From Phoronis australis (lineage: Eukaryota; Animalia; Phoronida), in contig NMRA01000674.1 in the NCBI GenBank assembly GCA_002633005.1, forward strand, positions 130,936-194,935: 64,000 nt of DNA. Reading direction: 5' to 3'. The notes under the pieces are model-generated. The model saw only the letters and a list, made by a program, of their open reading frames with translations, was not told the origin of the DNA and made no database searches. The position numbers were made by a program, and so were the translations under genes. Of this stretch, positions 17,926 through 61,535 are shown piece after piece. Every line of letters starts with the position of its first letter. The first letter of the stretch is position 1.

Positions 17926-19027
17926 CCAAAAACGATTCGCATCGGAAGAACACACGTCCATTTGGAACTTATCGCGAACCAGGAAGTACAATTCTTTCAG
18001 GAACCCATGCTAAGAAAACCCCGTCAGTGCGACTGGAGTTTTCCCGGTTACCAGCGCAGAATGGGGAATGTTGGACAAAACCCTTTTGTCCACTGACGTC
18101 ACACGCATGCTGGCGCCCTCAGTGGAGGTTAGGAGACTTTGCACTGGTGGCCTGCCCTTGTAGAGTCTGCAGTTTGTTTACAAAACTGGTAACTTGACTC
18201 AGCGTGGTAACATCATTTGTATCAAACAAAGATACTCTATACCGAAATATTTGTTTGTATACCAGGCCACGGACAGTGCTGTTCTTGAATGGAATTATTT
18301 ATGGATATTAAGGCAATCCTTTGGCAAATATGAGCAGACTTTGAACATACCATTTTGTAAGACATAACCTTCAAAATTTTAATAAAAAATTAACGAATGC
18401 TATCCTGCGTATGACCTTGCTTACCAGTACGACATTCTTTTGGGCACGTTGAGTTTGTTGTCACGAGAACCGACTCACCTGTTTTGTGGAAAGCTTCCCC
18501 ACAGCTTTGAACACAGACTCGTTTTGGGGTTCTGGAATATAATGATTTATTCACTACACCAACTTGTCCACCTTTGCTACAATAAGGCTACCGATGTTCA
18601 CGGAATTTGCTTGATGGAGCAATTATGTGCGAAGACTAAATCACGGGTAACGTGTGAACTTGACTAACACGGTGCGAGTTTGTTGATCAAGAGCTGTTGA
18701 TGACATCAGATTTTATATCCTTTTCATTTCCTACATGTACGAATCGTTGAAAAGCGCCATCCAAGTCAAAACCAAGTATCTTGAAATATAACCCGTTTCA
18801 AATACCTGACCTTAGACATGACGCAGTAATCTAATACCTGACACGTTTTGATACCCATGTTGATACCAAAATCAATGAAAACCACACCCATTTCTCATAA
18901 TCATGAGCTGCCAGCAAGAATTAATTCGATTGTGCGTATCCAAACACAATGCGTTTTTCCCATATTTCATTTGAAACCTGAAGTTGGTCTAGTGCGGCAT
19001 CCCTATCAACCACGACAAGACAATTCA

Positions 19028-19832
19028 GCCGACCACCTCAATCACCATTTATGGCATCCACATTGACTCTGCCACCATGACTGCTTCTCTCCCACAGGAC
19101 AAGGTGGACAGAGCTTCCAACATCCTGCTCGACTTCCAAAAACGTCGCAAGGTTACTCTTCGCGACCTCCAATCCCTCATTGGTCTACTAAACTTTGCCT
19201 GCTCCGTCATCGTGCCCGGCCGCGCCTTCCTGCGCCGACTCATCAACCTCACCATCGGCATTTCGAGACCAGACCACTTTGTCACTCTCAATAAAGAAGC
19301 TAGAGCGGACCTTCGGGCTTGGTCCATCTTTCTCCGAGGCTTCAATGAGAAAACACTGTTCCTATTCGACAAGTGGACATCTTCAGACACCATCAAACTG
19401 TACTATGATGCTGCGGGCTCCAACGGGGGTTTTGCTGCGACATTGGGAGCTTCCTGGTTTGCCTACCCGTCGCCCGAGCACCTCCAACGCCATCACATCA
19501 CCTTCAAGGAACTCCTTCCGATTGCCATAGCGCTAGAGCTGTGGGGTTCAAAGCTTGTCAACCACAAGATCCTCTTGCTGTGCGACAACCGTGCTGTCGT
19601 TGACATTATCAACAAGACCTCCTCCCGCCACGCCCCCATTATGTCTCTTGTTCGTCGTCTGGTCATCTCCGCTCTTACCTTTAATGTTCATTTTCGGGCA
19701 AAACATATCCCCGGCTACACTAACATCATCGCTGATGCACTTTCTCGTTTCAACTTTCAGGTCGCCTTTTCCCAGGGTTATTGGCTCAGCCCTCATCCGA
19801 CACCGATCCCGCCGCACCTCCTGACAGAGTGA
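19028..19832 (+). pseudogene. Ngaro-type YR retrotransposon: RT C-terminus and RNase H (5'-truncated)
   Basis: LQSLIGLLNFACSVIVPGRAFLRRL, LYYDAAGS, HITFKELLPI, CDNRAVVDIIN and HIPGYTNIIADALSR are DIRS-group RT/RNase H motifs. Confidence 0.92.
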
Positions 19833-20660
19833 CCAGACTGCTCCGGGCTTCCCTGGCCCCCTCCACTCTTCAGTCCTACACCCGCATCCTGCATAACCTC
19901 GCACAGTTTCACCTCTCCTCTAACAACTCTCCGCTCACCTTGCCCATTAATACCTCTTTCCTGGCCCTCTACATCTCTCATCTCTTCGAATCTAGCCTTA
20001 GTAGCTCGTCTATCCAGTCCTATGTCTCTGCCATTAGTTTTGTCCACAAGCTTGACATCCTCCCAGTCCCCACTTCCTCCTTTTTCATCAAAAAAATCCT
20101 CAAAGGCACTTCCAATCTGCGCCCTTCTTCTGACGCACGCATGCCCATTACTTCCGCTTTGCTTCACTGCTTGTTTGGCGCCTGGCCTTCTGCACTTGGC
20201 TCTTTTGCCGACTCGGTTCTCGCACGTGCTATGTTCCTCTTAGCCTTCCATGCCTTCCTCAGGGTCGGTGAATTCACAGTCACCTCCTCGCTCTCCTCCC
20301 ACGTCATACAGGTCAGTGACGTCGTCTTCCCCCCTCTGGCGATACTGTGGTCATCACTATGCGTACCTTCAAGCACAGCTCGCGACCAGTGTCACAATTC
20401 CGTCCAGCCAATCTCCCCATTGCCCAGTAGCTGCCCTAACCTTGTACTTGTCTACTTTTCAGCCCTCTCCTGGCCCCTTGTTCCGACACCTCAGTGGATC
20501 ACCGGTTATTCGTTCCTGCTTCAACTCCATGTTAACTAAAGTGGTTTCCTTTGTAGGTCTCGACACCAAGTCTTATACGTCTCATAACTTTCGCATTGGC
20601 GCGGCCACCTCTGCGGCCAGCCGTGGCGACCCTGAACCGTTGATCCAGCGCATCTTGCAG
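19781..20660 (+). pseudogene. Tyrosine recombinase of the same Ngaro-type element (frameshifted, 3'-truncated)
   Basis: Overlaps the RNase H end on the same strand. Contains SLAPSTLQSY, FHAFLRVGEF (catalytic R) and SHNFRIGAAT (HxxR); breaks off before the GRW...Y motif. Confidence 0.9.
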
Positions 20661-23600
20661 AGTCTTAGTAAGTTTTATCTATTTATGTCATAATAAATGA
20701 CAATATTCGCAATCCTCCTCTTGTTTTAGTCTGCAACATAGCTCGTGGCGTACCCCGGGCAAAATAGATTACGATAAACACACATGTGCCCGATTTAAGT
20801 GTTGTGTTATTCATACTGTATGGATACAGGATAGCAACGTAAAAAGAATTCAGCGACAGTACAAAGGTGCATTCCAAAAGGCGCAACCAAAAATTTCTGG
20901 GATTCATATTTCTTGAACATGAAATTTGAGCAGCTGGATTTACAACAAGCAACATTTACACCAGTCAAGCCAGTTTGTTTGCATAAAGCGCTAAATCTTG
21001 AGAATTCAACCAGTTAATCAGAAATGCAAGTGAAAAAAAATTCCCGAGAAAACTAAACGATACCTACCAGCTGGCTACCACCTATCGGCACGCAGAGAAC
21101 GAGCGAGGGCCTAACTTGTTCGTTACATGCCTGTCTACTGTTTCATATAATCTGAAATAATGTTCACGATCTTGCATTCTACAGCGGCTATACTGAACGA
21201 TCGCGTTTCGTGTTGGGCCTAGCAGTTATGTGAAATACAGCAGCTGACGGATTATACTAAAAAGTTTATTCCAAGTATGCTCGTCAAAAGAAAAAAACGA
21301 ATGTTTTAGTCAGATGAGAAGCCTTGTCTTACTTCCCCTTGTTCGTTAGTTACTGATATTTTTGTGATGTAAATTACGAAAATTCCAAAGATATGGCGAA
21401 AAACATTATAACCGTGGATATCATAAATTGTTATAATTAGAGCGTAATTAGCATTGGTCAAATGAAATGCAGTTTGAGAGTGGCGTTCACCTGTGCGCGT
21501 CTGTGTAACATGTGAACAATAACTGTTTTGGGGTTATTGGTTACAATCATCTCCACAGAAAAAAGTTTCAGATTCATGTGAACGTTAAATGAGAACGAAA
21601 TCTGACGGACAACCATTAGAATCGAGAATAAACGTTGTCATGCCAAACGAACTACCTGCATGTACGTCAAAAGTGGATAAGTTTATATCTCCTGAAATTA
21701 TCCATGAACTTGTTTATATCGCTCCTAAAACCAGTGCGTGTCAGTTGAGCTTTGGCGGATAGTAGATAAATGTCGGGAAAACTAAAACTGGCCCGCAGCC
21801 AGCATTGCTCGGGGGGCTGGTTCGAATATCTAGCAAGCTGAACCTTTGTTATTTTGCAAATGTCGACACAAGAGTTTTCAAGGGGACCGAAAATTTGTAT
21901 GCACGGCAAAGATGGTTTTCATTTTTATGTTCGTGAGATCATACATAATTCAGAAATGAGGATGCCGTGACGTTTGTTCGAAAAGAGCAGGACTCAAATT
22001 CTGGTGTATATATGGTACACACATAGATTGTTCTATCGTTACCTCCTACCAAACTTTCAAATCAAACGTTTTTAAAAGAGTGATTACTCATTTCATCCTC
22101 AGACATAAATAATTGGATAATGACTTGACGTAAATTCTCATTTGATTGCATTTTTACGTGTTACTTATTGCTTACAACGATGGAAATGGAATTAAGCCAC
22201 TATTCCGAAGCAAATTTTATAGTTACCAAAGATGTCCGCTTGTGACCTAAATTCGTCACAGCTTTTCATTTAGCGCCGCCTTCTGAGAGGAGCTCATAAA
22301 ACGAAACAACATAGATAACTGTTAAGTTAGTTTGTCCTTTGGTGTTGACAAAATTTTTTGTTTCACTTGCATAAAACTAAGGAGAGGTAAGTCTATATTC
22401 ATTGTATATTCCACGCTAGGCCTACTGTTCTCAAGTATGTGCTGATCGGAGAACAGGAGTAAGTACTGGAGTAGAATAATAATAGTAGCAGGCCTACCTA
22501 TTGGGAATAGTTACTAAGAGTTGACAATACTGAGGCCCGTAGCATGGTCGTATGAGTCTCAATCGGTAGTGGATGCACCATCTTCTGCCAGGAATGTAAC
22601 AAAATCGATGTGGAGTTGTATCAGCTGTATTTGGTTAAATAAGACTAGTTTGTGTGTATTCTGCAGTTCAGGTTACAGTGTCAGACCCAGTGTCCTAGTC
22701 CACTGGCCTTGTTGACTGTGTGAAAACTGGGGTGAGATTGCACTTACACGGCCAGGTTTAGTGGAGAATGTTTGCATGCTTGCACAATGTAAAGATATTG
22801 TTTGTTTTCGTGTAGACTATGCTTAAAAAACCATGTGGAAAATGTCATTCTATTGAATTCAGGCAGTTGCTTTCATACCAGTCTTAGCCCTGAAAAAGTC
22901 TCAATTAATTACAGTTTAATATTATCATAATTAAATATTATCATAATTTCATAAACGTCCACGTAAATACAAATGATATTTCCTATAGATTGATATTGTA
23001 TTGTATTGTATTGTTATGCTTACAAAGGGATCTAAGAATTTTGTTATTCACTTGAATGGTCTTTACATTCATTCTAGTCTTATTGCATCGCATTAGTTAT
23101 CCCATGTGCAAAACATCATTATATTTTTGTTTTCCTCAAGTAAATTGTAGATAGTGATTCCTCAAAATTGGCTTGATGTCTAAAAATCTTGTTTTTATCC
23201 AAGGTAATTACAATCTTCACCACAGGCTCGGGCCTGGCTTGGGGGTCTCTGAATACAACTTGGTCCCCCGCCAATAGGTGGCGGTGCTCGAACTGTGTGA
23301 CTAGGCAAATTACACTGGGACGACCATCTTGGGATACAGTATCTTTGTCCGAATGTTCTTTATTCCGAATGTTCACTACTTCACTTGTCATCTCTGAAAG
23401 TTCACTACACCGAAAGTATCTTAACTTTCTGACTCTGGTGCAATTGTTATAATTTTGCATGGAAAACGACAATTCGGTTATTACATGCAGCTATACCAAA
23501 AATAACCACGGCTAATAAATCACGTTGTTTGGATTTCATGTGCATGAAAAATTGCCCGCATATCTTTCGAATACGTAAAAGTGAGTACTGTACGTACTTG

Positions 23601-25293: not shown

Positions 25294-26548
25294 AACAGAT
25301 GAAAGCGCTCCGAGGAGCGAACCTTGGCGAAATTAACCAAAAAGATGACGATAAAGATGATGACGAAGATGACGAATATGACGACGATGGTGAACAAAAG
25401 AATTATTAATAACATAGACATGACGAACGTAAAAGTCCGAAATCAGTAAGAAAAAGGCTACAGTCTTGTGCTACACTTGGCGAAATTAACGGAAAAGACA
25501 AGGACGGAGATGATGACGAAGATGATGACGATGATAACGAATATGATGATGATGGTGGCGATGATGAACAACATCACAACATTCATATGATGAACTTAGA
25601 TGTCATAAATCAATAAGAAATAGGCTACAGTCTAGTTCAATAGAAGATATACCAACATCAATGCAGCAAGAGCGCTCAACAAAGGAACAGCGTTATCAGA
25701 AAATCTCAAATAACTCGAAAAGTAGACGTCCTAGCGAAAAATGGAAGACATCTTCTGAAAGCCCGTTCAAAATTCTATCTAAAGTGATGGTATCGCCTAA
25801 TTCCGTAAATTTTTCGAAAAAAATGAAATTTTGCGTTTTTTTTAAAAATTCAAAGTCAAATAACTCGATAACGGTAAGTCTGAAAAAAAATTGTTAGAGG
25901 CCGTTTGAAAGATAATTCTTCAAAGAATCCACATGCAAAAAATCACGTCTTTTTGTCTTCCCGTTTTAAATCGCACTCCAGCACGACTGAAAATGGGCTA
26001 ACATGCGCCAGATCCGCAATCTTGAATGCAACTTCCGGTTTTTTAGTTGATACAATAGCATGTCACAAAAAACTAATATCCGTAAAACTTCGAAGGAATT
26101 GGCCCCATAATGCGCCCTGTACAGGAGAAAACGTTATTAGGCCAAAATCGAGGTGCGCATGCGCGATCACTGATATATCCGCCATCTTTGACCGGAAGTA
26201 AACAATTTGCAGGAGACATGTAGTGCACATCCGGTCCACTTATTGTGCCGATTTTCAGCTCTGTACGTAAAAAATTGCACAATTGTAGCACATGCGTTCT
26301 AGTATATTCGTACCGATTTTCAATTATGTAGGTTGAAAAATGCGGCCTCTACAAGCATTTGACTGTGAAATCGGATACAAAATGTCCGCCACGTCCGCCA
26401 TTTTGTATCCGATCATGACCAAAAACAATAGGCTTCCAGGACTTTCCGATCTACACGTTGTGTGCAAATTTCGTGAAAATCGGACGAAAACTGCGACCTG
26501 TAGAGTGATAACAAAAAATACTTGGCGAAAGAATCTCGCCAAGTAATA
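25294..26548 (+). mobile_element. Helentron/HINE-like non-autonomous element, unit 1
   Basis: 5' GCGCTC..GAGCG inverted repeat, GAT/GAC microsatellite blocks, and a terminal hairpin TACTTGGCGAAAGAATCTCGCCAAGTA followed by an A-rich tail. Confidence 0.6.
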
Positions 26549-26734
26549 AACACAACTTTTCTTCGTCCGCCGCTTAGAATAGAACACAAAGAACTTCTAC
26601 AAGAGAAGAATTACGAAAAGCCATGCGGTGGAGCATAGAAACATGCAGGGAAGTGTCTTTTCACAAATGAACTGGCTGTGTACTCCTCTTAGAAGCAGTC
26701 TCAAGCAGACCATGNTAATGCTGTCGGGGTAACA

Positions 26735-28098
26735 AACAACATGAAAGCGCTCTGAGGAGCGAAACTTGGCGAAATTAACTAAAAAAAAAACACGTTCGAG
26801 AGGACGAGAAAAGACGACGACAGAGATGATGACGAAGATGACAGCTATGACGACGATGGTGGCGTTAATGGACAACCCTAGTTATGATATCATTCATATA
26901 ACGAACGTAGAGGTCAGAAATCACTAAGAAATAGGCTTCAGTCATGAGCGACCCTTGGCGAAATTAACTGAAGAAAAGACGACGTCGGAGATGATGACGA
27001 AGATGACGAATATGATGATGGTGGTGGCCATGATGAAAAACATCATAACATTCATATGACGAATTTAGATGTCATAAATCATTAAGTATTAGGCTGCAGT
27101 CTAGTTCAATAGAAGCTAAACCAACCTGAATGCAGCAAGAGCGCTCAACAAAGGAGCAGCGTTATCACAAAATCTCTAATAACTCGAAAAGTAGACGTCG
27201 TAGAGAAAAATGGAAAGCATCTTCTGAAAGCCCGTTCAAAGCTCTATCTAAACTGATGGTATCGCTTAATTCCGTAAATTTTTCGAAAAAAATGAAATTT
27301 TGCGTTTTTTTTAAGAATTTCAAAGTCAAATAACTCGAAAACGGTAAGTCTGAGAAAAAAATTGTTACAGGCCATTTGAAAGAATATACTTCAAAGAATC
27401 CACATGCAAAAAATCACGTCTTTTTCTCTTCTTGTTTAAAATCGCACTCCAGCATGACTGAAAATAGGTCAACATGCGCCAGATCCGCCATCTTGACAGC
27501 AACTTCCGGTTTTTGGTTTTGTATAATAACATGTCATAAGAAACTAATACCTGTAAAAATTCGAAGGAATTGGTCTGATAATGCGCCCTCTACAGGAGAA
27601 AACGTTTTTAGGCCAAAATCGAGGTGCGCATGCGCGATCGCCGATATTTCCGCCATCTTTAACCGGAAGTGAACAATTTCCGGCACATTTGTAGTAAGCT
27701 TCCGGTCCATTTACTGTGCCGATTCTTAGCCTTTTACGTAAAAAATTGTAGCCTCCAGAAGCATTTGAACTTTTAAATGGAAACAAAATGGCCGCCACAG
27801 CAGCCATCTTGGATCCGATTTTGACGAAAAACAATAGGCTTCTAGTACTTCCTGCAGTACATGTTATGTGTAAATTTCGTGATGATCGGACGAAAATTGC
27901 GACCTGTATCGTGCGAACAAACAAAAAAAAAAAAACTTAGTGGAAGAGCAACATACTTGGCGAAATTTATTTCGCCAAGTAACAAGTAAAAACTTGACGA
28001 CAGAGCAACATACTTGTCGGAATTCGAAGAATTCCGCCAAGTAACAAACTTGGTGGAAGAGCAACATACTTGGCGAAATTTATTTCGCCAAGTAATAA
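26735..28098 (+). mobile_element. Helentron/HINE-like non-autonomous element, unit 2 (diverged tandem copy)
   Basis: Colinear with 25294-26548 (e.g. 27130-27670 vs 25661-26200); ends in three tandem TACTTGGCGAAA...TTTCGCCAAGTA-type hairpins. Confidence 0.6.
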
Positions 28099-34146: not shown

Positions 34147-34290
34147 GGAAATGTCCAATCGTTCAAGGTAAGAATAACATGATGAGTGATTGGTTGAACA
34201 ATGTGTTTCCTAGACTACTAGTGATTTTGCAATTATCGGCCAATCAAAAAGTGGAGGTGGGCTTTAAAATGCTTTAAATATAACCTTGTT
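34147..34290 (+). promoter_or_regulatory. Candidate Pol II promoter of the cysteine-rich peptide gene
   Basis: Three CCAAT boxes (CCAATC 34155, reverse-strand ATTGG ~34189, CCAATC 34240) and TATA-like TTTAAATATAA at 34273-34283, about 55 bp upstream of a strong splice donor. Confidence 0.5.
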
Positions 34291-34299
34291 CTAAGGATT

Positions 34300-34335
34300 G
34301 TCACATTCGACATACACAACACTGGGATTAAGCAG
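34300..34335 (+). other. Putative non-coding first exon (start approximate)
   Basis: Inr-like TCACATT ~28 bp after the TATA-like box; ends at consensus donor CAG|GTAAGA (34336). Linkage to the 38726 exon is inferred. Confidence 0.45.
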
Positions 34336-34959
34336 GTAAGAAATTTAGTGTTCACTGTATACAGATGCATAGTATTTGGTAAGTTAAAAAATGTCATTTC
34401 CTCCGTTACAAGAAACGAATGTTTGATTTGGAGTAAAAGTCGCTCCTTAAGCTTAGCTTATGCATGCTTTTATGCTACATTGTTCAGAAATTGAAAAATT
34501 GCATTAAATGTGCGTGGCATATCACATTCGTGAAGATTTTCAGAAAATTTCCAAAACAGTACCCAAGGAGAATAACACTATTTGGTTTGCAAATTGCATT
34601 TTTCTTCAAAACATATTGTCTTTTCTGAAAGAATAATTGTAACTTGCAAACATTTAGAAGCTTAAACATAACCGATGTTATGCAATATTTCCTGAAGTGC
34701 TATTGAAGTTCGTAAAACGGCCAGGGTGCGGCCATTGTTTGTAAGGTCCATGTACTTATTCTACTACAGAGCAAAAACCGAACTTATTACGCAATAATGT
34801 TATTCTTTGTTAAAGCAATTTTAGAGCTCTAAAAGAGCAACACACTATGTGTTTGTTTCGGAAGAAGACGGTTTTCACAACACAATGTTTGTGACACTTG
34901 TGACGATTGTTATACTTACTGAACACTATCTTGGTGTTTTGTCACGGATTTCTGAATGT

Positions 34960-35562
34960 TAAGAGTTTAAATGATAGTGAATGTAATTTTATTAGTTTGT
35001 CGAGTTTTTCACAATGAATTGAATCGTTATGCACGACGGAGCCATTTGAATTCTCAGGACATGTTCCAAGCAATCGATGGGGCCCAAGCATACGATGACT
35101 TACTATTGAAACAGCAAACTTTTCACTTTTGTTCATGCTAGAAGTCATGATAGACACAGATTTAAGATTAACATACCACATATCTCCCATTCATTCTTGT
35201 GGCAACTTTTTAAACAATAGTTTGATCATCCTTTGGCGGGTGATTTGATGAGGCTTAAATTAAGCGTTTGAATGATGGTGAATGTAATTTTGTTAATTTT
35301 GTCTAGCTAGTTTTTACAGTACATTGAATTGAAACATTATGGAAGCCGGGGCTATTAGAAATGTCGTACATGTACTATATTCCAAGCAAACCTTTGCGGA
35401 CCAAGCATACTTTTGTAACAGCAAACTTCTTATTTTGTTCACGCTAGATGACATGATGGACAAAGATTTAAGATTAAGATACCACACATCTCCCATTATT
35501 CTGGTGGCAACTTTTTAAACAATTCTCTGACCATCATTTGGAGAGTGATTAGATGAGGCTTT
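34960..35562 (+). repeat. Diverged tandem duplication, ~300-bp unit x2
   Basis: AATGATAGTGAATGTAATTTT (34970) recurs at 35271; both units end ...GATGAGGCTT. Confidence 0.8.
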
Positions 35563-37359
35563 GTAATGCAATGTGCATTAAACAAGCAGACCACTAGGTT
35601 GTCGTTTACAGTTCATGTAACTGTTCGCCCTTTTTTGCCGAAATGAAAACCTGTGCTGTTACAAACTTAGTGTACGTGTTCATGTGTCACCTCGTCGCAC
35701 CAAAACACCATGTAAAAAAACATCGTAAGCCATGCAGCAGACAATAATGACTGTATAAGCAAAGTATTAGTCATCAACATCGCTTCAAGTAACATATATG
35801 CCACGAAAGAATAATCGCACACTTCCGCTTCTAATACATGTGCCTGAATACTTACTGTGAATTATGCAACAATGTGTTCTTACACAGAAAATCACTAAAC
35901 AATGGAAGTCCTTACCATTTTGCACTAACATTTTACGGAAAACAAAATGCACTCAAGTAGTGAAAGCAACAAGGTGTACGCATCAATGCCACATCACGTC
36001 ATATAAAACATACTGTCAATAACAATTATTTATTTCTAATACACATACGTGAGCCTTTACTGTAAAATATACAAAATCAATGTCCTGTCACACAAACCAA
36101 TAAATAAGAGAAATAATGTTTAGTGATACAAGTATATGCATGTATCGGTGTACCGTTTAAATCTTAGAACGATACAGTGCGTAGGAGACGACCGTTGCTT
36201 GGAACAATACAGCGTGACCAAAGCGCGTCGCGTTGCATCGTTTTAAAAACTAAGAACGATACAGGGAATAGAACGAGAGACCATCTGTATCGTTGTAGGC
36301 CTAACCTCTTGGCCCAATCATGACCAACGCAAGTCTCGCTGTGTCGTCTTAAAGACTAGAACGATACAGCGGGTAATGAGGCACGTTTTAACGTTGTGAC
36401 CTTTAGAGCAATACAGTGTGACAAATGGTTGCCTCGCTGTACTCGTTTTAAAGTCTAGAACAAGGAAGAGTGTTGAACGCATTACAGCGTTCTGTCGTTC
36501 CGTAAGTTTTACAGACGTGAGGGGTGCTCGAACGTGCGATAACATCTGGCTCTTTTGTTAAATGCCCAGAGTCTATTGTCCGGCATGATAACAAGCAGGC
36601 CAATTATCTCCCAGGCTTCAAAGGAAACGTTTGGTGGTTGCACGCTATTACCGAACGCGTATGAACACAGTCAAACCCTTGCGTCCGTTTGGACAGAATA
36701 GATTGTCTTAACTTCTGTTGTAGTTGGGCGATTTTGGTGAGTCAAAAACGGAGCATGATCAGCATTTGACGAGGAATTCAGAAATTCTACTATTTTATGC
36801 TCAAATAATATATGTTATAACTTAACTTTCATTTTTATCAGCCCAACCCAGTCAGTCTAGATACTGTACAATCTGATCGGAGATTTGAGCAATTATGGAA
36901 CAAAAGAGCGCAGGCCCTCCATGTGGAATGGAGTTAATCAGTCGTGTAAGATATTGGCTACAGGGGTAAACTTCCCAACTTGTTGTTGGGCTACAGAATC
37001 GAACAAGTTGGGAGCAACGGGATGTCGCCGTCATGAAGACGCACGCTTTGCGACGCTAAGAACCATAAATCGTGACAGACGTTAGTCTACATATACATGT
37101 AGCTGTATAAACATCAGAACAGTACAGAAAATTGAACGACATGCACTCATTGACGTTATAGCCCTTGACGATACAGGGTGAAGAACATGCGTCCCTTTGT
37201 GTGGTTTTAATATCTAGAAGGATACGGTGAGCTAGCGATCGAGATGCACTTTGAAACGTTGTAACCTCGTTGAACAACATAGCGCGACAGTCGCGTGTCT
37301 CAGTATCACTTTAAAATCAACAACTACTCAGCGAGTAGAAGGTGAAGCACTCTAAACGT

Positions 37360-38080
37360 TATGTAGTTTGCTTCACGTGGTTACCTGGTAGGTTGATCTA
37401 GCTTAACTCTGAGGCGTACAAGTCTGGCGGTGTTAACCCACCTCTGGGTTTGTCTGGCACCGTTATTTCGTGATACAGTGGGTTACGCTGAGTATGTAGC
37501 GATCGATTTCATGCGGTTACCTCTTGGGTTTAACTAACTGAATTTTGGGACAGGGCATCTCGCCACTGAAATCGTCTAGAGCATATCTGCTGCGCAGCAT
37601 AGGGGTGATGCTGGTCGCTACACAACTGATTTCAACAAGGTAACTGGTGGGTTGGACTAACTCAACTTGGTGGGCGTGTCTCAAGAGGGTAATCCAAACC
37701 CCAATTTGTCTGCCTGTGTTCATTCATGATACATTGGTCTATGATGACTAATTTGTAGCCAGTTTCACACAGTTACTTCTTGAGTTGATCTAGCTCAACT
37801 GTGGGACCCCATTGTATTCTATGTGGCGGGGTATACCACCATTGAAATTGTATGACTTTGTACAATTTTGAGACAGTGAATTGAGTAGTTGGTGTTGCAG
37901 GTATTTTTATTTAGTTACCAGAAAAAAATTATAGTGTTATTCTCATGGCCTCCGGAACCAAACTTACTAGAGCGAACCTGTCAGATGGCCATTTTCTAGC
38001 ATTTGGACAGCCATGAATCTCTGTGGTATCAAAGAAAATTGCTTACTCTTAATTGCCCAAGAACTATTGAATCCCTGTCT
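37360..38080 (-). repeat. Inverted copy of the 14380-15250 repeat
   Basis: Reverse-complement similarity as described for 14380-15250. Confidence 0.7.
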
Positions 38081-38738
38081 ACAACACAAATCTGTTTTTA
38101 TCGTTTTAAAGCTTAAGAACGATACGTCGAGTTAAACGACCGATACACGATTACGAACGCGTCTCGTATGAAACTCTAGGAAAGTGTGTGCAGTTTACAG
38201 TATTGGTTATCCTTTATTCAGATGATCAAATGCAGTTAGTAACGATCTAAATACTACACCGTTTCATCAGATGCACCCAGTCTCATTTTCCGTATTGGAC
38301 AATACAAGATTATAATTGCAGAAAGTCAGCAGGCTTTTTAGACATTTTCCATAGTATTTCTATTGAGAAAGGCTCGCAAAACCGGAAATCGAGCCATGCC
38401 TATTAGCAATCCAATGTTGAATAATGGGGATCCCAAATTTCTTCTTGCAACAACCAAGAGGAGAAAATCTATACAAAACTGTGCAAATTTCTTCAACCTA
38501 CGCCAAAAAGGCGCCGACATGCCAAATTCCATTATGGTTACTTTACACTGGTATCAACCAGGTTGTTTCAGTTTGTACTTGAAAATGCGAAAGGATAATT
38601 GTTCTATCGAGGAGAAAATGGTTTGCGAAAGATTATGCACATTTTTGTTGAGATTAAAATATCATATACTTGCTTCTCCTTTTCATAATTGTTTCTCCGT
38701 AACTTGATCTGCCATTGAATTACAGAAAACTAGAAGTC

Positions 38739-38820
38739 ATGAGGTGCGTGGTGATACTCATTGTGCTGATGCTAGCCGTAGGCTGCCTCCAGGCGTGGCC
38801 GGTAGATGGCGAAGACGAAG
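38739..38820 (+). CDS. Signal-peptide/acidic pro-region exon of a secreted cysteine-rich peptide (MRCVVILIVLMLAVGCLQAWPVDGEDE+G)
   Basis: Acceptor TTACAG| at 38725; GTCATG start; basic N-region, hydrophobic core, LQA|WP cleavage-like site, acidic spacer; phase-1 donor AAG|GTGAGA at 38821, in frame with both downstream Cys exons. Confidence 0.85.
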
Positions 38821-39099
38821 GTGAGAAACAATAACTGTCAGTACCCTGGGCCGAGCTCCATGCGAACTTCGCAAGTACAGATAAAGTGATCACGTGCTGT
38901 GCTTGTAATGCCTGGTGTTTTCGCGAGTTTTTTTTTTTGTTTGTGGAGCATGAGATGTGGATCAAAAATCTCAGTACTAGTAACACTTCAAATTTAAAGG
39001 TTCATTTGGCTTACTGAAGATTCACCACGACTTGAGATTTTCTAGTCCTGTTAGAAGAGGTCTCATCTTGCATAGAACAGGTACACAAAAAGACTACAA

Positions 39100-39940
39100 C
39101 TCAAAATTTAGGTTGTTCAGTAACTAATGCGCTAAACATCAAATTGATCCTTTACGACCTTTTTAAATAACTATGTGAATGTCCTAGCATACAAGTTTCA
39201 CCAAGGAACTGCTTACAGGACTTTGAAAGGCTATCTGTCAATGTTGTCTTCTGTACGACCAATGATTTATATTCCTGTAGGGCAGCATCCTCGCGTCATT
39301 TGGCTTTTAAAAGGCACCTACGTTGGGATACCTCCTTCTAAAACATTTTTTCCTGGTTAAGGTTTATTTCAGGTTGTTAAGGCCTAGAAGTACGCTCCTT
39401 TGGAGGCTCCTTGGAAATCAAAATTAAAATATCTCGCCTCAAAACATGTTTTACTATTGCTATCACACCTTTTCGTTGGTGCAATGACTTCTTTTTAGGT
39501 AAAAGCTCAAATATTGACTAAATGTGAGGCTAGCTATTTCATAGACATAGATTTTACAAGCAGATTAGAGTCGGTCAAAAACAATCTCGTGTCTTTAATC
39601 TAGATTTCTGAGGAAAAATAGTTTAACATTAAGCGGTGTTTGTCGTTATGTCTCAAGACAACAGAGGAGCTTCCACGTCCCTGGGTGTCAACGGTTTGTT
39701 CTTGTCGTCTACTGTACATAACATGTATAAGCACCAACTCGGTAGTTAAAACCATTAGACTGGCTTCCATCTGCGACGTTAATATTAGGGTAAGTTTGCT
39801 CCAAATCGTATTAGAGGACGCTTTATTCGTAGTGCTGGTCTTTCGTGGGCTTTCATTAGGGGTAGGCACATGATAGTCATTTTGTCTTTTTGTGGCTGGT
39901 CTTCAGAATTCACCTTTGTTAAACACTATGTACAAGCAGC
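39100..39940 (+). pseudogene. DIRS1-type tyrosine recombinase remnant inside the peptide-gene intron
   Basis: AYRTLKGYLSMLS...VGQHPRVIWLLKG...PP at the N-terminus and IRSAGLSWAFIRG...CGWSSEFTFVKHY (W and catalytic Y motif) at ~39825-39930. Confidence 0.75.
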
Positions 39941-41342
39941 ACGTTTGGATTTTTCGGCATTTAGTTTGGCTAATTTTCCCGATATGAATGCGTTGGTGCT
40001 CCTTCTTTTGCGGGTTTCAGTCGGACGGATAAGTTTTTTTCTCTTTTGAGCACTTGGTGTGATCTCACGTTTATCGGTGCAATTTCTAATTGTTTATTTA
40101 CTGAGGTGTTTCGACAAATGCATCCACTCTGAATACGGACATATGTCCAGTCTGTGTGTATTTTCTGAGACGCACACCTTCATCCCCTCAAGCTTGTTAA
40201 TCAAGTTTATTTATAGGTAAATATAAGGTAACATATAGGAAATATAATTAAGTTGTAACTTCATAATTATTTGGTTACCGTATAGTTACCACTTCCTTCA
40301 CTACCTCTCCTTGGACTTCCAGTGAACGGGTGGCTTGCGCGTAATGAAGAGATCATTAAACTATTGCCGTCCTCATCTCGACCATAGAAACACGAAATCT
40401 TCAATGTTGCAATTTCACGCTCGATTGGTCTGAAGAGAAATAAAAGCCAAATCAATCGACTCGCAATTTAAAGAAACCGATAGATCTAGTAGCGCTCATT
40501 GTAACTAAGCTTGATTTCAAAGATCAAAATTCAAAACCATCACGGGATGCCTGTCAAAGATATATATTTTACGGAACCCCAAATAGATGGTTTTCATCCA
40601 CGTGTGGGGCGAATCCAATACATAAACAACTAAGAATCATCCCATCTCGAATTTCGTGTTCTCTCCAGTTCACATCAGGATATAGCAAAGCAAAGAAATA
40701 TGCGACGGGAACAGTCGGCGCTATTTATATTGTTACATTGGAGAGTTCTCGCCACATTTCCTACAAAATCTTCATCTTATCGTCTTACTATTGCTAACAA
40801 ATACGCACCGGTAACTGTTGAATTGCCTTTGCCAGAATACGACTAAAAAGAAATAGATATTAAGTTTTAAAAGTTGCTTTAAAAATACAAAGCGTTCTAA
40901 AGTATTCCTAATTCATCCAGTGGTCCATGTACTTTGTTCAACTGTGCTGTTTATTGACATTTCGTGCATTAACGGCAATAAAGGTATTTTTGAATTTATC
41001 AGCCAAAGTTTCAACCTTGTGCTAGTCAACTTGTATGCTTCATGAACTGCAAAGATTCTCTCGTTGATAATAACCCGTTCTCTTCATACAATTCCGTTCA
41101 GTTCAACGTGCCTTTGACTTTCCTTCCCCGAACACGCCCCCCGGAAAACGCCTCCTCTCCATTAGTTATGTAACAGCATTTGTTATCGTTCTGTCGCTTT
41201 CTATAGTGTGCTCGTATCATTCCAACTTCGACACCCCCTTTCCAAACCTCAGCCACGGATTGAAGCTGCACCTGTTTACCGTTAGAATGGTGAGAATGAA
41301 GCGCGGCTGTATTTTACGAGTGAACAATTTCCTCTATTTCAG

Positions 41343-41446
41343 TTGCAGTGAAAAGATCCCGCACATGTGATATCGGTTGCACCTACACATGCAATTTTTT
41401 GAAAAAAACTACAACGTGCCCCAATGGAGTTTGTCGTTGTGTTTAA
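41343..41446 (+). CDS. Mature-peptide exon A: (V)AVKR-SRTCDIGCTYTCNFLKKTTTCPNGVCRCV*, CS-alpha/beta defensin/toxin-like
   Basis: Polypyrimidine acceptor TTTCCTCTATTTCAG|, phase 1; KR dibasic site; six Cys as C-x3-C-x3-C-x8-C-x4-C-x-C; stop TAA then donor TAG|GTATGT at 41450. Confidence 0.85.
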
Positions 41447-41541
41447 TAGGTATGTATACAACTACACAAAACCAAGTAAAATAGTTTAACTGGTTCCGGT
41501 CTGCGACCAAAGGTTTTTGAAAACTGCGCTTCAATGTATAA

Positions 41542-42638
41542 AGGAGAATGCCACCCGATTTAATTAGTCTTTTTTGCCGTCTTAATCGGTCTATATCCAC
41601 TTCGACTCTAATACGTTCGACCTTACCTTGCCAAGAGGTGTTGTGTTAACCTGTGAGGAAGGTTAGAAACGACGCTAGCGACGTCAGTGGTTCATATGCA
41701 GAGTGAATGACGCTATGTTGCGGTGCATCGCTCCCGCTTGTCCGTACTTAGCAGCTGCGAGGAAAGCGGGTATATCGTTTTTTGCTTCCTCGAGAGTCCG
41801 AAATGCTTAGGAAGTGGCTCATGGTAGTGAAGAATGGAATGTACGCTATAAATAGCAAGTATGAAGCCGTAAAACATTTCTGTACCTGTGGCCTGCAAAC
41901 GTCGACAGTGCCTGACGAATGCCGGCTTACCAAATAACTCCATACGTTCCGTTGTCTGAGCTTGTTCACGGCGCCTCTCTAGTATTTCTTCATCACTGTA
42001 TTCCTGTTCGAATTGATAGCCTGTAAAACTTAACGATCCACCTGCGAAGTCGCCGGGGACTGATGCCGTCCTTAGTCGGGATTGCGAGTTGCCATTTTGG
42101 CGTTTATTACTGAGCGTTTTGTTTCAAAATGAATTATTTTCACCCTAACCAATACTTATATAAAACTGAAACAAAGCCTGCCTCAATAGATGCAGTTTGT
42201 AATGCCTTTGCAGTGTTCGTGAGTGCAAATGATTTGAGAAGCCAGCAATGAATAAATCACTGCGTTACCGGTTTTAGGTGCAATAAAACTAATTGACGGG
42301 ACACCGAGGCTAATTTAGTGTTTGCTGGAAGAAACTGTTGTAAAACAACTCGATTTCCATCCCACGGCCAAGTGTTAGAGGAATCTTTATTTACATTTAC
42401 ATTAGTCAAATATTTATTGTCAATGTACAACTTCTGCCCTGAGGGTGCTGTGGCCAAAGCGGAACCTAAATTCGCGGCCACCGACGAGTAAGTAGATTTG
42501 CAGTTTCGTGGCAAATTCACCAACATAATCAGGTGCACATTACTTTCGCTCACTAGTATAGTATTTTCTTGACTGGAAGTTTAGTTTCCACTAAACTTTG
42601 GCTGGTTTATGTTCGTGATGTCTGATCAGTTTCCGAGC
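41542..42638. mobile_element. Kolobok-like non-autonomous element, copy A (cut by the gap)
   Basis: Same left terminus AGGAGAATGCCACC and interior as 44037-45647. Confidence 0.65.
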
Positions 42639-42693
42639 NNNNNNNNNNNNNNNNNNNNNNNNNNNNNNNNNNNNNNNNNNNNNNNNNNNNNNN
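42639..42693. other. Assembly gap (55 N)
   Basis: Run of N. Confidence 1.
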
Positions 42694-43354
42694 GAAAACA
42701 TCTTGTTTTCATTTGAAAGACTTTAGACTTGGTTTCTATAACTATTTAAAGCAGACTTCTTGCCTAAAAGTTTGTTCAAATGGTTTGTAAACTCTGCTCG
42801 TCATTTCCAAACTATGAAAATAGACAGTTTTGCAAGACAATTTTCACTAAAGTGCAAAGTTGAGGCAAGATTTTTTATTGCTCAGTCATCAAGACTAACT
42901 CTTTAACTGTATGTTCAAAACGTCACATAAGGCTACAAGGTGTTTTATGGCAGTAAGAAGGTCACAAAAATGGCCACTAAAATTAGCCCCAAAAAGTGGT
43001 CTGTGGATTATCTCCCCTGTCTAGCATAAAACTGTTAGATTTTAATAAATGGCACAGAATTATGCACAGTATACGTTGGTTATTTCAGCCACCAAAATAT
43101 AGCTTTTGATCTATTTTGTATGTTACTCTTTTTTGTTGCTGAAAACATGCGATTTTTGAGACGGCTAATATGCCCAATTGTGCCAATTTGTGTTATCATG
43201 CTCCAGCGGCGAAATTAGAGGTCATTGAGTGCGCAAAATTTGGCATTTGGGTTTTTGTTAGGATACCTACCCATGTACAAAAAATGAAGTTGTTTTAAAT
43301 TTTGACGTATAGACTGATTTTTGAAAATCTACTGGTTTTTATATGGACTGCCTC
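42694..43354. mobile_element. Right end of a Sola3-like DNA transposon
   Basis: Ends ...ATATGGACTGCCTC|TTAA; GAG/CTC termini with a TTAA target are typical of Sola3. This sequence is absent before the equivalent TTAA of copy A (40860). Confidence 0.55.
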
Positions 43355-45149
43355 TTAAGTTTTAAAAGTTACTTTAAAAATACAAAGCGTTCTAAAGTAT
43401 TCCTAATTCATCCAGTGGTCCATGTACTTTGTTCAACTGTGCTGTTTATGGACATGTCGTGCATTAACGGCAACAAAGGTATTTTTGAATTTATCAGCCA
43501 AAGTTTCAACCTTGTGCTAGTCAACTTTTATGCTTCATGAACTGCAAAGATTTTGTCGTTGATAATAACCCGTTCTCTTCATACAATTCCGTTCAGTTCA
43601 ACGTTCCTTTGACTTTCCTTCCCCGAACACGCCCCCCGGAAAACGCCTCCTCTCCATTAGTTATGTAACAGCATTTGTTATCGTTCTGTCGCTTTCTATA
43701 GTGTGCTTGTATCATTCCAACTTCGACACCCCCTTTCCAAACCTCAGCCACGGATTGAAGCTGCACCTGTTTACCGTTAGAATGGTGAGAATGAAGCGCG
43801 GCTGTATTTTACGAGTGAACAATTTCCTCTATTTCAGTTGCAGTGGAAAGATTCCGCAGATGTGATTTCGGTTGCAACTACCAATGCACTTTAGGGAGAT
43901 TAATTGCAGATTGCCAAAATGGAGTTTGTGTTTGTGTTTGACAGGTATGTATATAACTATACAAAACCAAGTAAAATAGTTTAACTGGTTCCGGTCTGCG
44001 ACCAAAGGTTTTTGAAAACTGCGATTCAATACTTGAAGGAGAATGCCACCCGATTTAATTCGTCTTTTTTGCCGTCTTAATCGGTCTATATCCACTTCGA
44101 CTCTCATGCGGTCGACGTTACCTTGCCAAGAGGTGTTGCGTTAACCTGTGAGGAAGGTTAGAAACGACGCTAGCGACGTCAGTGGTTCATATGCAGAGTG
44201 AATGACGCTATGTTGCGGTGCATCACTCCCGCTTGTCCGAAATAAGCAGCTGCGAGGAAAGCGGCTATATCGTTTTTTTACTTTCTCGAGAGTCCGAAAT
44301 GCTTAGGAAGTGGCTCATGGTAGTGAAGAATGAAATGTACGCTGCAAATAGCAAGTATGATGCCGTGAAACATTTCTGGGTCTGTGACCTGCAGACGTCG
44401 ACAGTGCCTGACGAATGCCGGCTTACCAAATAACTCCATACGTTCCGTTTTCTGAGCTTGTTCACGGCGCCTCTCTAGTATTTCTTCATCACTGTATTCC
44501 TGTTCGAATTGATAGCGTGTAAAACTTAACGATCCACCTGCGAAGTCGCCGGGGACTGATGTCATCCTTAGTCGGGATTGCGAGTTGCCATTTTGGCGTT
44601 TATTACTGAGCGTTCTGTTTCAAAATGAATTATTCTCACCCTAACCAATACTTATATAAAACTGAAACAAAGTCTGCCTCATTAGATGTAGTTTGTAATG
44701 CCTTTGCAGTGTTCGTGAGTGCAAATGATTTGAGAAGCCAGCAATGAATAAATCACTGCGTTACCGGTTTTAGGTGCAATAAAATTAATTGACTGGACAC
44801 CGAGGCCGTGTGAGCTCATGCTAATTTAGTGTTTGCTGGAAGAAACTGTTGTGAAACAACTCGATTTCCATCCCAGGGCCAAGTGTGAGGGGAATCTTTA
44901 TTTACATTTACATTAGTCAAATATTTATTGTCAATGTACAACTTCTGCCCTGAGGGTGCTGTGGCCAAAGCAAAACCTTAATTCGCGGCCACCGACGAGT
45001 AAGGATATTTGCAGTTTCGTGGCTAATTCACCTACATAATCAGGTGCACATTACTTTCGCTCACTAGTATAGTATTTTCTTGACTGGAAGTTTAGTTTCC
45101 ACGAAACTTTGGCTGATTTATGTTCGTGATGTCTGATCAGTTTCCGAGC
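43355..45149 (+). repeat. Copy B of the ~1.8-kb direct duplication
   Basis: Colinear with 40860-42638; begins exactly at TTAA. Confidence 0.95.
43838..43941 (+). CDS. Mature-peptide exon B: (V)AVERFRR-CDFGCNYQCTLGRLIADCQNGVCVCV*, CS-alpha/beta defensin/toxin-like
   Basis: Same acceptor, phase, length and Cys spacing as exon A; RFRR furin-type site; stop TGA then donor CAG|GTATGT at 43945. Confidence 0.85.
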
Positions 45150-45647
45150 TACTGGCCAGGATAACAAGCGGTTTGTGTTTAGAACTCAAAAAATCACAAG
45201 TCTAAACAACACAGATCTAGGTTCTCCTGTCAGTATCTCACGGAAAATACTTCGAAAATATCTCTGAACAGACCCCAAACTCCTGCTACGGACCTTATTG
45301 GCCTGCCGAACTTTGTAGGCTACGCTGTGTCCAAATACCAATAAATCCGTAAGAGCGAAATAAAAACACGTTTTTATAAGAAATCGGTGTATGTTTAAGG
45401 GTTTTACATCGACGTTTGATGATTTATTGGTGTTAAACGATGACTTCAAGCGATAAGCTGACACCAGTAACCCGTGTTGTGAACTGCTGAACAGACTGCG
45501 TGTGAAACCGATGACGTCATTGGTTAATTTCAACACCTCCGTCTGCCGTCAGGTGTCAGGTAACGCAACCGTACGTGTCGTTATGGAGTAGAACTACTCG
45601 ATCTGAATTGATACAAATTAGGTTGTTTTTTTGGGCGGCATGCTCCT
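44037..45647. mobile_element. Kolobok-like non-autonomous element, copy B (both ends present)
   Basis: TTGA|AGGAGAATGCCACC ... GGCGGCATGCTCCT|TTAA (AG..CT termini, TTAA-like TSD). Minus-strand YQFEQEYSDEEI resembles KolX N-termini. Confidence 0.7.
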
Positions 45648-47415
45648 TTAAACAAAAATGTCGCCCATTACCCCAACAATGTTGACAATTTGTGTTACAA
45701 AAGGTGTGCGAACATATGTAACAACATCGCAAAACAACTTAGCAAGTATACCTCATTCTTAGTTGCAAGTGGTTCGGTTTGCCAGCTCCCCACACCCCAC
45801 AAGTACAATCAACCCGGTCAATCAGAGCGGTAATTCCGCGCCATTGGATCGCTGGGGTAGGAAAAAATCGCACACGCATTTAGACCATATTACGTGGCTT
45901 CAAAAATGTAAGACTATACACATACCGTATCACTGCAAACATTCTCAAAAGCACCGGCTAGGACCTACATTGTATATGACTTCTTGGTCTAACTAAGATC
46001 CTTCCAAACCTGAGACATTTCCAATACTGGGTAGGGTTCAACAACACTAGGACTTCTCTGGAAAACCACTACTTCGCGAGATTACGCGAGATATTTTTGT
46101 GTATTTTAAATGAAAACACTCGATTTTGGCGAGATTGTTCAAGCATCGAGATATCTACTGAACTCTATCGTGGTGTGACCCCAATCAGTGTGGTGCAGAA
46201 TCCAGTGGCAGCTTATCGAACAGCAAGGCGGCGACTGCATGGTAATGATGAGGATGAAGTATAATTTGAGGCCAATGCACGGTTTCTTCCATAAAACAGA
46301 CCGAAGTAGGGACATAATTACTTTCCATAAAATTTCTGATGAGTTGTGGACTTTTGAAAACACTGATTGCCCGTTTTTCTTTTATCACTTAGTCAAATCT
46401 AGTCTGAACTGCATGTTGAATTCTCTATATGATTGAACATAAGTTGCAAATTGTTAAGGCAACGTCCCAAATTTTGGGACTAAGCCTCTACTAAATTAAA
46501 GGCTCAGTTTTCAGTTATATTAAAAGAGTTTGTTACAACGCAAAGGAGTTCGTAACAGAGATAAGGTGATAGAAAGAAATCACACGTTTGTGAGTTGTCA
46601 ATGACACAGATATGTAAACATCTTAAGGATCTTAATGGATTGACTAAGTTCTCAATTAAAAGTCTCAGAGGAGTCTTAATTTGGAGAATAGATGCCCTGG
46701 GACAACAAACTGGGAATAAGTTAACCTAAGCAGTTATTGTCATTTTTTTTAAATGTCTGTTCATCATTTTAAACGTTAGCGTTATCACAAAGAAGGGGAC
46801 ATTTCAGACGGCGGAGATTACCGTGGACTCATCCCGTTGAATAATTATTGTGGGTGGAAAAGTTTTAAGTTTTTGGGAAATTTCTTCGGAATTATTATCC
46901 TGACTTGGTAGTGTCGTCTTGCTCTTCTGCTGGGCAATGATGACTGACTGCTTCACGCGAAGATTTCTTAATAGCTCTTTACCGGTTTCCATAGACTATA
47001 GCCGCAAATCGCTGGACCATTAGTCAGATCAATAACTCTAACCTGACCCTTCCTTTTTTTCATTCATAGAGGGGCTCTTGCACTTTTGTCTGTAAAAATT
47101 GACAGAGGACGACGGACTGCGTGAAACAGCCTGTCATCAATGCCAAATAGCATATTTAGTCAGGCGTAAGGCCAGGAAAGTTTTTTTTGCAGTAGCTTCC
47201 AAAGAGTTGATGATTCTCTTCTCATTTCAATATGGCCACACTGTTAATGGAAGTCTATTTTTCGATCGAGAACTACATGTATAGCTCTGTCTAGTGCATT
47301 CAGAGTTATTCACTATGCACGTACCTCAGACTATGCAACACAAGTGTCTTTCATTTTGTGCACGAGTATGTGACTGTGGCGCTTACATGATAAGTGCTTT
47401 ACGCTTGATTTTCAG

Positions 47416-47520
47416 GTAATTGGTTGGTCAACAGTGTGGACGACGTTTGAAATTTTGCAAGTAAAATAAATGCATCGACGACCATTTGAAGGCAAAAATA
47501 AAAATATGTCAAAGCCACTT
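47416..47520 (+). other. Candidate terminal 3'-UTR exon of the peptide gene
   Basis: Acceptor TTGATTTTCAG| followed by AATAAA at 47465 and 47497; assignment to this gene is inference only. Confidence 0.25.
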
Positions 47521-59399: not shown

Positions 59400-61535
59400 T
59401 CCTGAATGAACTGTGAAGTGTTAACAATTATTAACATTGGAAGTGACCACAGAATGGTTAGAGCAAAAATAAGAATCAACAAAAGCCTACTAAGGCTTAA
59501 ACGAATGGAAAGACTGAGATCATTCAAGGCAAACACAGAACACATGGAATAATGCAAAGAATACTTTCAACTGACACTAAAAAGAGATTTCAAGCCTTAG
59601 AAGAAGACACTAAATCAATCGAAACTTTTAACAAAGTCCTAACAGAAGAAATCAAGATCCTGCATGAGAAAAAAGGAAAGACAGGCACAAGTCCATCACC
59701 AGAAGACACTAAAGCTCAACAGATGGACACAAAAAGAAAAGAACTGTACAAGAAAGACAAAAAGACAGAAAGAGAAAGAATAGAATACAGTGAACTTAAC
59801 AAAACAATGAAAACATTTAAGAGAAATAGAGCCCGACGATAAAGAATAAAGATGATAATGGCCACAATTGAAAAAGGAAAAGGACCAAAAAAATCTACAA
59901 GCAAGGAAATAAAAAGAAGATATCAAAAATGCGAAACCCTAACGGAGAAATAACAAACAACAGAGAAGAAATACTCAAAATTTTATATGAGAAAACGATG
60001 AATCCACCAGAAAAGATGGGAACCAGGAATCTAGACACAGAACAAGTACCACCTTTCACTGAGGAGGAAGTAGAACATACCCTCAGAAGGATGAAGAAAA
60101 GAATAGCACCAGGAAATGATAATATTACAAGCGATATAATTTCGGCAGGAGGACAAGAAATAATCAAATACTTGGCAAAAGCATTCAATGTAATTCTAAG
60201 CACCCAAAACATCCCAAAATGCTGGAAAGAAGCAAATATAATATTATTGTTTAAAAAGGAGACCGAAGTGACATAAAGAACTATAGACCCATAAGCTTAT
60301 TAGCTCATACATACAAACTGTTCACAAGGCTATTACAAAATAGAATGGAGAAACAACTGGATGAAAATAAACCCCGAGAACAAGCAGGGTTTAGAAAGAG
60401 CTACTCAGCAACAGACCATCTACAAGCCCTTGGACAAACAATTGAAAAATGTAACAAATTTAACCTGCCACTGTGTGTTGGTTTCATAGACTATGAAAAG
60501 GCTTTTGATTCAGTTGGACACTTTGCGATCACTGAAGCCCTAAAAAACATCAACAAAAATGAAACATTTGTAAAACTGCTGCAATATATATGCAGATGCC
60601 ACCGCCAGAATACACATCGACAACCACGTCTCTGAAAGATTCAACATAGAGAGAGGAGTTAGAGAGGGAGACCCAAATTCACCTAAACTGTTTACACTGA
60701 CAATGGAAGAAACCTTCAAATCTTCAGGCTTTCAAAGGGGAGTAAACATAGACGGAGAACATCTAACACACCTAAGATTTGCAGATGATGCTGCTTTGTG
60801 CACAGAAGACATAATACCATTATAAACAAATTTAAATATACTGAATGAAGAAAGCAACAATGTGGGATTAAAGATACACAAGAACAAGACAAAGTACGTG
60901 ACAAATTTTGAAACCAATGAACAAGTAATGGTGGAGAGCAAGATAAATACCTGGGACAAACTATACAAATTGGAAACCTCATGAACAATGAAATACAAAT
61001 CCGAATAAGAGCTGGATGGGGTTGCTTTGGAAAAAACAGAGAAATATTCCAAGATAAGAATATACCCATATGCCTGAAAAGAAAAATATTTGACCAGTGC
61101 ATCATCCCCACAATCACCTATGGATGCCAAACATGGACCTTAACAAAACAGACAATTACCAAGCTAAGAGCAACACAGAGAGCAATTGAGAGAAAAATTC
61201 TTGGAATAAAGCTACTAGACAGGGATCCACACACAGAGATAAGGAAACAAACAGGAGTTATGGACATAATCAAGACAATTCTGAAATTGAAATGGAGGTG
61301 CGGCGAACACGTCGCCAGAGCACAGGACAACAGATGGACAAAAAGATGCACAGCGTGGAAACCCAGATATGGAAAGAGATCAAGAGGATGGCCCCAAGCC
61401 AGATGGAGAGATGACATCGTGAAGACGAGAGGCACAACGAGGATGAGAGCGGCAAGAGACAAAACAAATTGGAAGGCATTGCCGGAGGGCTACATCCTGT
61501 AGTAGATGGACAATGCCTAGTGTCAGTAAGTAAGT
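59400..61535 (+). mobile_element. RTE-clade LINE, 5'-truncated and frameshifted
   Basis: SDHRMV (APE end), APGNDNI, EQAGFRK, IDYEKAFDSV, RGVREGD, HLRFADD, RIRAGW...TYGCQTW; short AGTA-repeat tail at ~61525. Confidence 0.92.

Follow-up and report, generated by a model that had tools for sequence, protein, structure and literature searches.

The window analysed here comprises 64,000 nucleotides (nt) of the phoronid Phoronis australis (GenBank assembly GCA_002633005.1, contig NMRA01000674.1, positions 130,936 to 194,935 of the forward strand; coordinates below are those of the window) and harbours, on its + strand, a spliced gene for a six-cysteine defensin- or toxin-like peptide. The gene has four exons, which hold the 5' untranslated region (UTR), the signal with an acidic pro-piece, the cleavage site with the mature peptide and stop codon, and the 3'UTR, respectively, and is thus larger than in an earlier sequence-only reading of this DNA, to which the two UTR exons are added here. 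Exon 2 (38726–38820) consists of 13 nt of UTR, the ATG at 38739 and 27 codons plus one base, encoding a predicted hydrophobic signal of about 19 amino acids (aa) and the acidic pro-piece, and is followed by a phase-1 GT donor at 38821. Downstream lie two versions of the peptide exon, 3a (41343–41449) and 3b (43838–43944), each carrying a basic site (RFRR in 3b), a six-cysteine mature peptide and a stop. Both are preceded by identical TTTCAG acceptors, both add 33 in-frame aa and a stop, and both end directly after the stop in an AG/GTATGT donor (at 41450 and 43945). The two 61-aa precursors (27 + 1 + 33) that the sequence-only reading had derived with canonical splice sites, by joining 38739–38820 to 41343 or 43838, can be read directly in the sequence.

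Transcription of the gene was followed in four RNA runs carrying one species label, of which X1 consists of assembled contigs and X2–X4 of raw reads (18–19% read); the junction counts stem from a mapping to region 38450–41520 at 80% likeness. The GT..AG joint 38820>41343 was supported by three reads in X3 and five in X4 (none in X1 and X2), exon 3a was covered at a depth of 3–5 in these two runs, and the junction reads of X4 showed one listed difference from exon 3a, at 41361. Hence, of the two junctions that had been predicted, the first is borne out by RNA. The second, 38820>43838, is not among the 15 of 69 joints that were listed, a set from which 38820>41343 is likewise absent, and the mapped region did not include 43838; RNA depth was 0–0.13 in the bin with the start of copy b.

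Stranded depth on exon 2 reached 673–1884 (bin 38759–38861), on the strand that a + transcript would give, with values of about zero in the introns. The 95-nt exon attracted 1266, 2320 and 3524 reads in the three raw-read runs, i.e., 99, 205 and 319 per million reads read, and is thus strongly covered in all of them. Most of these reads (1057 of 1266, 1924 of 2320 and 3036 of 3524) are less than 90% alike to the exon and consequently come from relatives, be they paralogues, alleles or a close taxon, rather than from this copy. Seven of the eight continuations listed at the exon 2/exon 3 boundary are, by hand translation, distinct pro-ends closing in R-x-R-R, and 20 further loose ends lie outside this set; the differing pro-ends mean that the family is abundant and comprises several genes or several alleles. 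One X1 contig (aligned at 41368–41452) carries a third form of the peptide exon, about 83% like copy a and with a pro-end nearly identical to that of copy b. Another X1 contig, listed at 38817 and abundant with a depth of about 3040, has exon 2 in common and continues into sequence that is not readable as an R-x-R-R pro-end, and the same type of signal exon may thus serve another peptide family as well.

The two outer exons are placed via transcripts of relatives, and their positions are accordingly best regarded as probable. In 458 X4 reads the loose 5' end carries an 11-mer that has a single occurrence in the window, at 34311 (expected number 0.05), just 5' of a CAG/GTAAG donor at 34336 and downstream of CCAAT, GC-box-like and TATA-like motifs; because the 5' ends of the reads point there, exon 1 was assigned to 34311–34335, with an approximate start and with no joint of its own among those listed. 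A candidate coding exon further upstream, near 34151, was dropped, since the 5' read ends indicate 34311–34335, and for the dominant relative the 5' end mapped to no unique position. The putative promoter found by motif scan (34155–34283, +) features CCAAT boxes at 34155, 34189 (reverse) and 34240, a GC-box-like motif at 34253 and a TATA-like motif at 34273–34283. A kappaB-like site (34147–34156, +; also from the motif scan) precedes exon 1 by about 160 nt; it resembles the kappaB consensus, the pattern was composed after the site had been seen, and four sites of its stricter form exist in the 64-kb window. At the other end, a relative (about 83% like 3a) is represented by an X1 contig that leaves exon 3 at its donor and enters sequence matching 47419–47448 with 1 mismatch in 30, which points to exon 4 at 47416–47502, with a TTTTCAG acceptor, two AATAAA motifs (47465 and 47497) and an approximate end. 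Within the window, exons 1, 2 and 4 are single copy.

The cysteines of both copies are spaced 3,3,8,4,1 and include the C-x3-C and C-x-C motifs plus the third cysteine pair by which the CS-alpha/beta superfamily's array is defined (PMC5116183). The claim of an expressed spliced gene with signal, acidic pro-piece, basic site, six cysteines and CS-alpha/beta-type spacing holds. The mature peptide of 3a would have about 27–29 aa and a net charge of +2 to +3, behind a pro-end that has KR alone and lacks the final Arg of the R-x-R-R seen in the family, and that of 3b would have 26 aa if cut after RR, with a net charge of –1 to 0. Of the gamma-core motif GXC/CXG, which is usual, not required and generally located at the fourth cysteine, a GVC is found at the fifth cysteine and none before the fourth. 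From the scorpion toxin signature Lys-Cys4-Xaa-Asn (PMC8252768), both copies feature the Asn and lack the Lys.

The peptide exon evolves differently from its surroundings. Between copies 3a and 3b, 23 of 99 coding bases differ, and in the intron upstream 9 of 483 (p = 2e-12); of the coding differences, 22 change an amino acid and one is silent (rate of amino-acid-changing differences, dN, 0.36; of silent differences, dS, 0.05; Fisher p = 0.022). The encoded pieces are 52% identical over 33 residues, none of the six cysteine codons is changed, and the excess of amino-acid changes is confined to the mature peptide. The peptide exon is consequently under diversifying (positive) selection, be the copies alleles or paralogues.

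This question of alleles or paralogues arises from the duplication in which the peptide exons lie. Unit 1 (40860–42638, +, 1.78 kb) and unit 2 (43355–45149, +) are 95% alike, and non-coding divergence between them amounts to 1.9% in the intron, 4.4% in the repeat part and 8.4% in the 95 nt after the stop. The six-cysteine pattern occurs twice in the window, where 100 shuffles gave 0.03 on average, and both occurrences count as one independent event because they are duplicates of each other. Exactly at the end of unit 1 begins an assembly gap of 55 N (42639–42693), which may mark the join of two haplotypes, and a repeat fragment (42694–43358) follows, which ends at the TTAA where the homology of unit 2 starts. 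This fragment, to which RNA reads of either strand and X1 contigs (42722–43026 and 42998–43358) map, is likely the end of an inserted transposon, possibly of a TTAA-targeting DNA transposon.

Since both peptide exons are located between a single exon 2 and a single exon 4, their position suggests cassette exons. A possible, albeit tentative, extension is that the family diversifies by duplicating the mature-peptide exon alone within the gene, with a single promoter, signal exon and 3'UTR exon shared by two mutually exclusive, positively selected cassettes, each encoding a minimal CS-alpha/beta peptide on a short-loop scaffold between defensins and short scorpion toxins. A transcript holding both 3a and 3b would carry an early stop and would be degraded. 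An even chance, independent of any function, is given to exon 3b representing the second haplotype, placed in tandem when the contigs were scaffolded over the gap, in which case each allele would encode one peptide. In favor of this speak the coincidence of the end of unit 1 with the gap, the contig ends in repeats on both sides of the gap, the start of unit 2 at the TTAA adjoining the transposon-like fragment, the low non-coding divergence, the single-copy state of exons 1, 2 and 4, and the joint to 43838 not being among those listed. On the other hand, alleles diverging by 23% in coding sequence would be exceptional, X3 and X4 contain near-identical versions of 3a, and a genuine tandem duplicate would equally break the assembly here. 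Haplotypes joined across the gap hence account for the locus about as well as tandem duplication does, and the production of both precursors from a single signal exon stays a proposal. Either outcome would be unusual: a defence peptide diversified by cassette exons, or alleles that differ by 48% in protein amid 2% intron divergence.

Searches for relatives gave no family that could be named, in line with the sequence-only reading, which had named none either. At E ≤ 10, none of three pieces matched a Pfam family, including the defensin families and Toxin_2. Single-sequence searches of the PDB yielded no match for one piece and one (E = 0.76) for the other, and a two-sequence profile had its best PDB match, at E = 0.0051 and over C2–C6, in coprisin, a defensin from a beetle, with gamma-KTx 2.2 following at E = 8.2. 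The same profile found nothing at E ≤ 0.001 among 1.84 billion representatives, and word-based homologue searches with the frames of exon 3a and exon 2 returned no candidate, the short queries being padded with flanking non-exonic codons and the targets being 22–70 aa long. All of these sequence searches used short pieces instead of a whole precursor, so that a relative detectable only by its precursor stays possible and absence counts as weak evidence. From 203 pattern matches in metagenomes one locus was retained, which we attribute to chance (a 12-residue motif on a contig of 55% guanine plus cytosine, with three cysteines and no signal in the 20 preceding codons). In the literature covered, from which most subscription journals are missing and which does not extend to the sequences of the six-cysteine peptides named in PMC11768458 (two framework-IX peptides of Kulikovia, 65 and 69 aa) and PMC12846013 (Cephalothrix), no description of the family was found, and a search of PMC11767717 with six terms gave no match. 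Of six motifs, the hairpin motif of 3b alone was found in print, in four papers, one of which lists beetle defensins.

Insect-type defensins are made as a precursor of signal, pro-piece and basic site. With such six-cysteine defensins (e.g., coprisin, PDB 2LN4) the peptides share C-x3-C, C-x-C and the hairpin end C-x-N-G-V-C-x-C. In insect defensins, the first loop spans 4–16 residues, the length is 32–52 aa and the x3 and x1 loops are invariant in 57 sequences (PMC5506212), whereas the peptides described here fall below both ranges with a first loop of 3 and about 26–29 aa, and differ further by the missing Gly-x-Cys before C4, the low charge and the absence of a Pfam defensin match. The size and short first loop, which had been taken to be without counterpart, do have one among the short scorpion alpha-KTx: BmP02 (alpha-KTx 9.1) has 28 aa and, with C3, C6 and C10, a 2-residue first loop (PMC12894229; PMC6483409). 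Likeness to alpha-KTx extends to a size within 23–42 aa, the short n-loop, the Asn at C4 + 2, the top matches in a feature search of the Atlas, and the pattern of the three disulfides in BmP02, which is the one expected here (PMC12894229). Unlike alpha-KTx, the peptides lack the Lys before C4, have an N-terminal acidic pro-piece with R-x-R-R, and show no significant match in sequence or fold. Of the proposed likeness to a KTx hairpin, the Asn of the signature thus stands, and the claim is weakened by the absent Lys and by the best sequence match being a beetle defensin.

Among invertebrate families of similar build, MgCRP-I of Mytilus likewise has four exons, the first of them 5'UTR, a conserved pre-pro region, a basic cleavage site and a hypervariable, positively selected mature region with preserved cysteine codons. 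It differs by its array (C-C-CC-C-C compared to C-C-C-C-C-C), by the location of its introns and by a last exon that contains the peptide together with the entire 3'UTR (PMC4558851). Mytilins share the C-x3-C-x3-C start and four exons, but have eight cysteines, no N-terminal pro-piece and an anionic C-terminal extension (PMC7168163). A nemertean alpha-KTx/beta-defensin/myticin-like family also consists of secreted six-cysteine peptides of about 60 aa and was named for its weak KTx likeness (PMC10674772). Membership in it was rejected in a by-eye comparison, as the members in the rows of Fig. S11 in that source have a different spacing (with C-x3-C-x3-C at its end) and a different signal, and lack an R-x-R-R pro-piece. 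MgCRP-I, the mytilins and the nemertean family resemble the peptides described here in build or history, but differ from them in their cysteine array.

The best reading is that the peptides represent a lineage-specific host-defence family without named relatives. To the more detailed version of it, we assign a probability of roughly 55%: the gene, spliced from four exons, belongs to a family with strong expression and rapid divergence, whose products are predicted to be secreted, are likely cleaved at the basic site, and likely act in host defence against microbes with a probable minimal CS-alpha/beta fold. It builds on the exon structure, the splicing of exon 2 to 3a, the high stranded expression of the family, its several R-x-R-R relatives and the change excess in the mature peptide. 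The signal would be cleaved near residue 19, and the acidic pro-piece could hold back the activity of the peptide up to its cleavage by a furin-type convertase (at RFRR in copy b; copy a offers only KR). By analogy with the spacing, disulfides would form between C1–C4, C2–C5 and C3–C6, and the resulting three-disulfide peptide of about 26–29 residues might kill or bind microbes, with an arms race driving the divergence of its surface. The kept x3 and x1 loops, the coprisin match, the absent toxin Lys and the strong expression were counted in favor of host defence, and the kappaB-like site upstream of exon 1 was counted as weak support.

Several points weigh against this assignment. Cysteine spacing cannot separate antimicrobial peptides from toxins (PMC5116183), and MgCRP-I, a mussel family of the same build, showed no antimicrobial activity (PMC4558851). 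The peptides are only weakly cationic, with 3b neutral to –1, and the dS of the 3a/3b pair depends on a single difference. Structure prediction, which the sequence-only reading had called for, provided a C-terminal hairpin without a helix for copy b (confidence score pLDDT 80) and a model of pLDDT 50 for copy a; Foldseek found no match at E ≤ 0.001 and the best Z in VIA-align was 2.0. Finally, the Atlas feature search, which is at the level of a lead, placed short scorpion toxin clusters in its top three for both copies (0.84–0.85).

The latter would fit ion-channel-active toxins for defence or predation, built on a convergent short-KTx-like scaffold in which the defensin n-loop is already short, an alternative that we regard as unlikely, but serious. 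A first loop of 3 is below that of insect defensins (PMC5506212) and near the 2 of BmP02 (PMC12894229), and access to the channel has two prerequisites, one of them being a short n-loop (PMC8252768). The Asn two residues past C4 is kept in both copies, and the conserved pre-pro region with a hypervariable mature region is reminiscent of conotoxins (PMC4558851). Furthermore, BmP02 blocks Kv1.3 via other basic residues, so that the Lys missing before C4 in both copies counts against toxicity without excluding it. The Atlas scores themselves remain below 0.9, a level approached by a third of shuffled proteins, no Pfam toxin family was found for any of the three pieces, and nothing marks the host as venomous.

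Quite improbable, in our view, is that the peptides are neither antibiotics nor toxins, and instead recognition or signalling molecules (e.g., for gametes, as pheromones or in symbiont control) or of another fold. Low charge and the helix missing from the models would agree with such a role, and reproductive proteins are also under positive selection. MgCRP-I provides a precedent, with neither toxic nor antimicrobial activity (PMC4558851), but defensin-like spacing, the similarity to coprisin and strong expression in all three raw-read runs argue against it. That the locus is silent or decaying and the RNA derives solely from relatives elsewhere, as the many exon 2 reads below 90% likeness and the missing final Arg in 3a could indicate, is very improbable and for 3a largely refuted by junction reads matching it in two runs, by intact frames, splice sites and promoter motifs, and by an amino-acid change excess with every cysteine kept.

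An abundant peptide family has here escaped both the calling of open reading frames (ORFs) and the databases searched. At about 26–29 residues the peptides are below insect defensin size and easily synthesised and tested, and as natural short-loop scaffolds without the toxin Lys they bear on the relation between defensins and channel toxins.

The remainder of the window consists mostly of transposon remains (25 ORFs scanned, seven with a match). These include a remnant of a DIRS/Ngaro-type tyrosine-recombinase retroelement (18993–20693), whose best named matches are bivalve proteins with up to 62% identity (a weak hint of a marine invertebrate host), a piggyBac-type transposase remnant (12466–13470, –; PF13843) and broken pieces of non-LTR retrotransposon reverse transcriptase (59872–61502, +; 10744–11070, –). 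A tandem duplication of about 1.47 kb (25299–27748, 83% alike) contains short GAT/GAC repeats resembling Asp/Glu codons and a single N at 26715. Repeats at 36100–37800, 41539–42638 and 44000–46500 show heavy RNA coverage on both strands, and 37372–38046 is an inverted match to 14410–15127.

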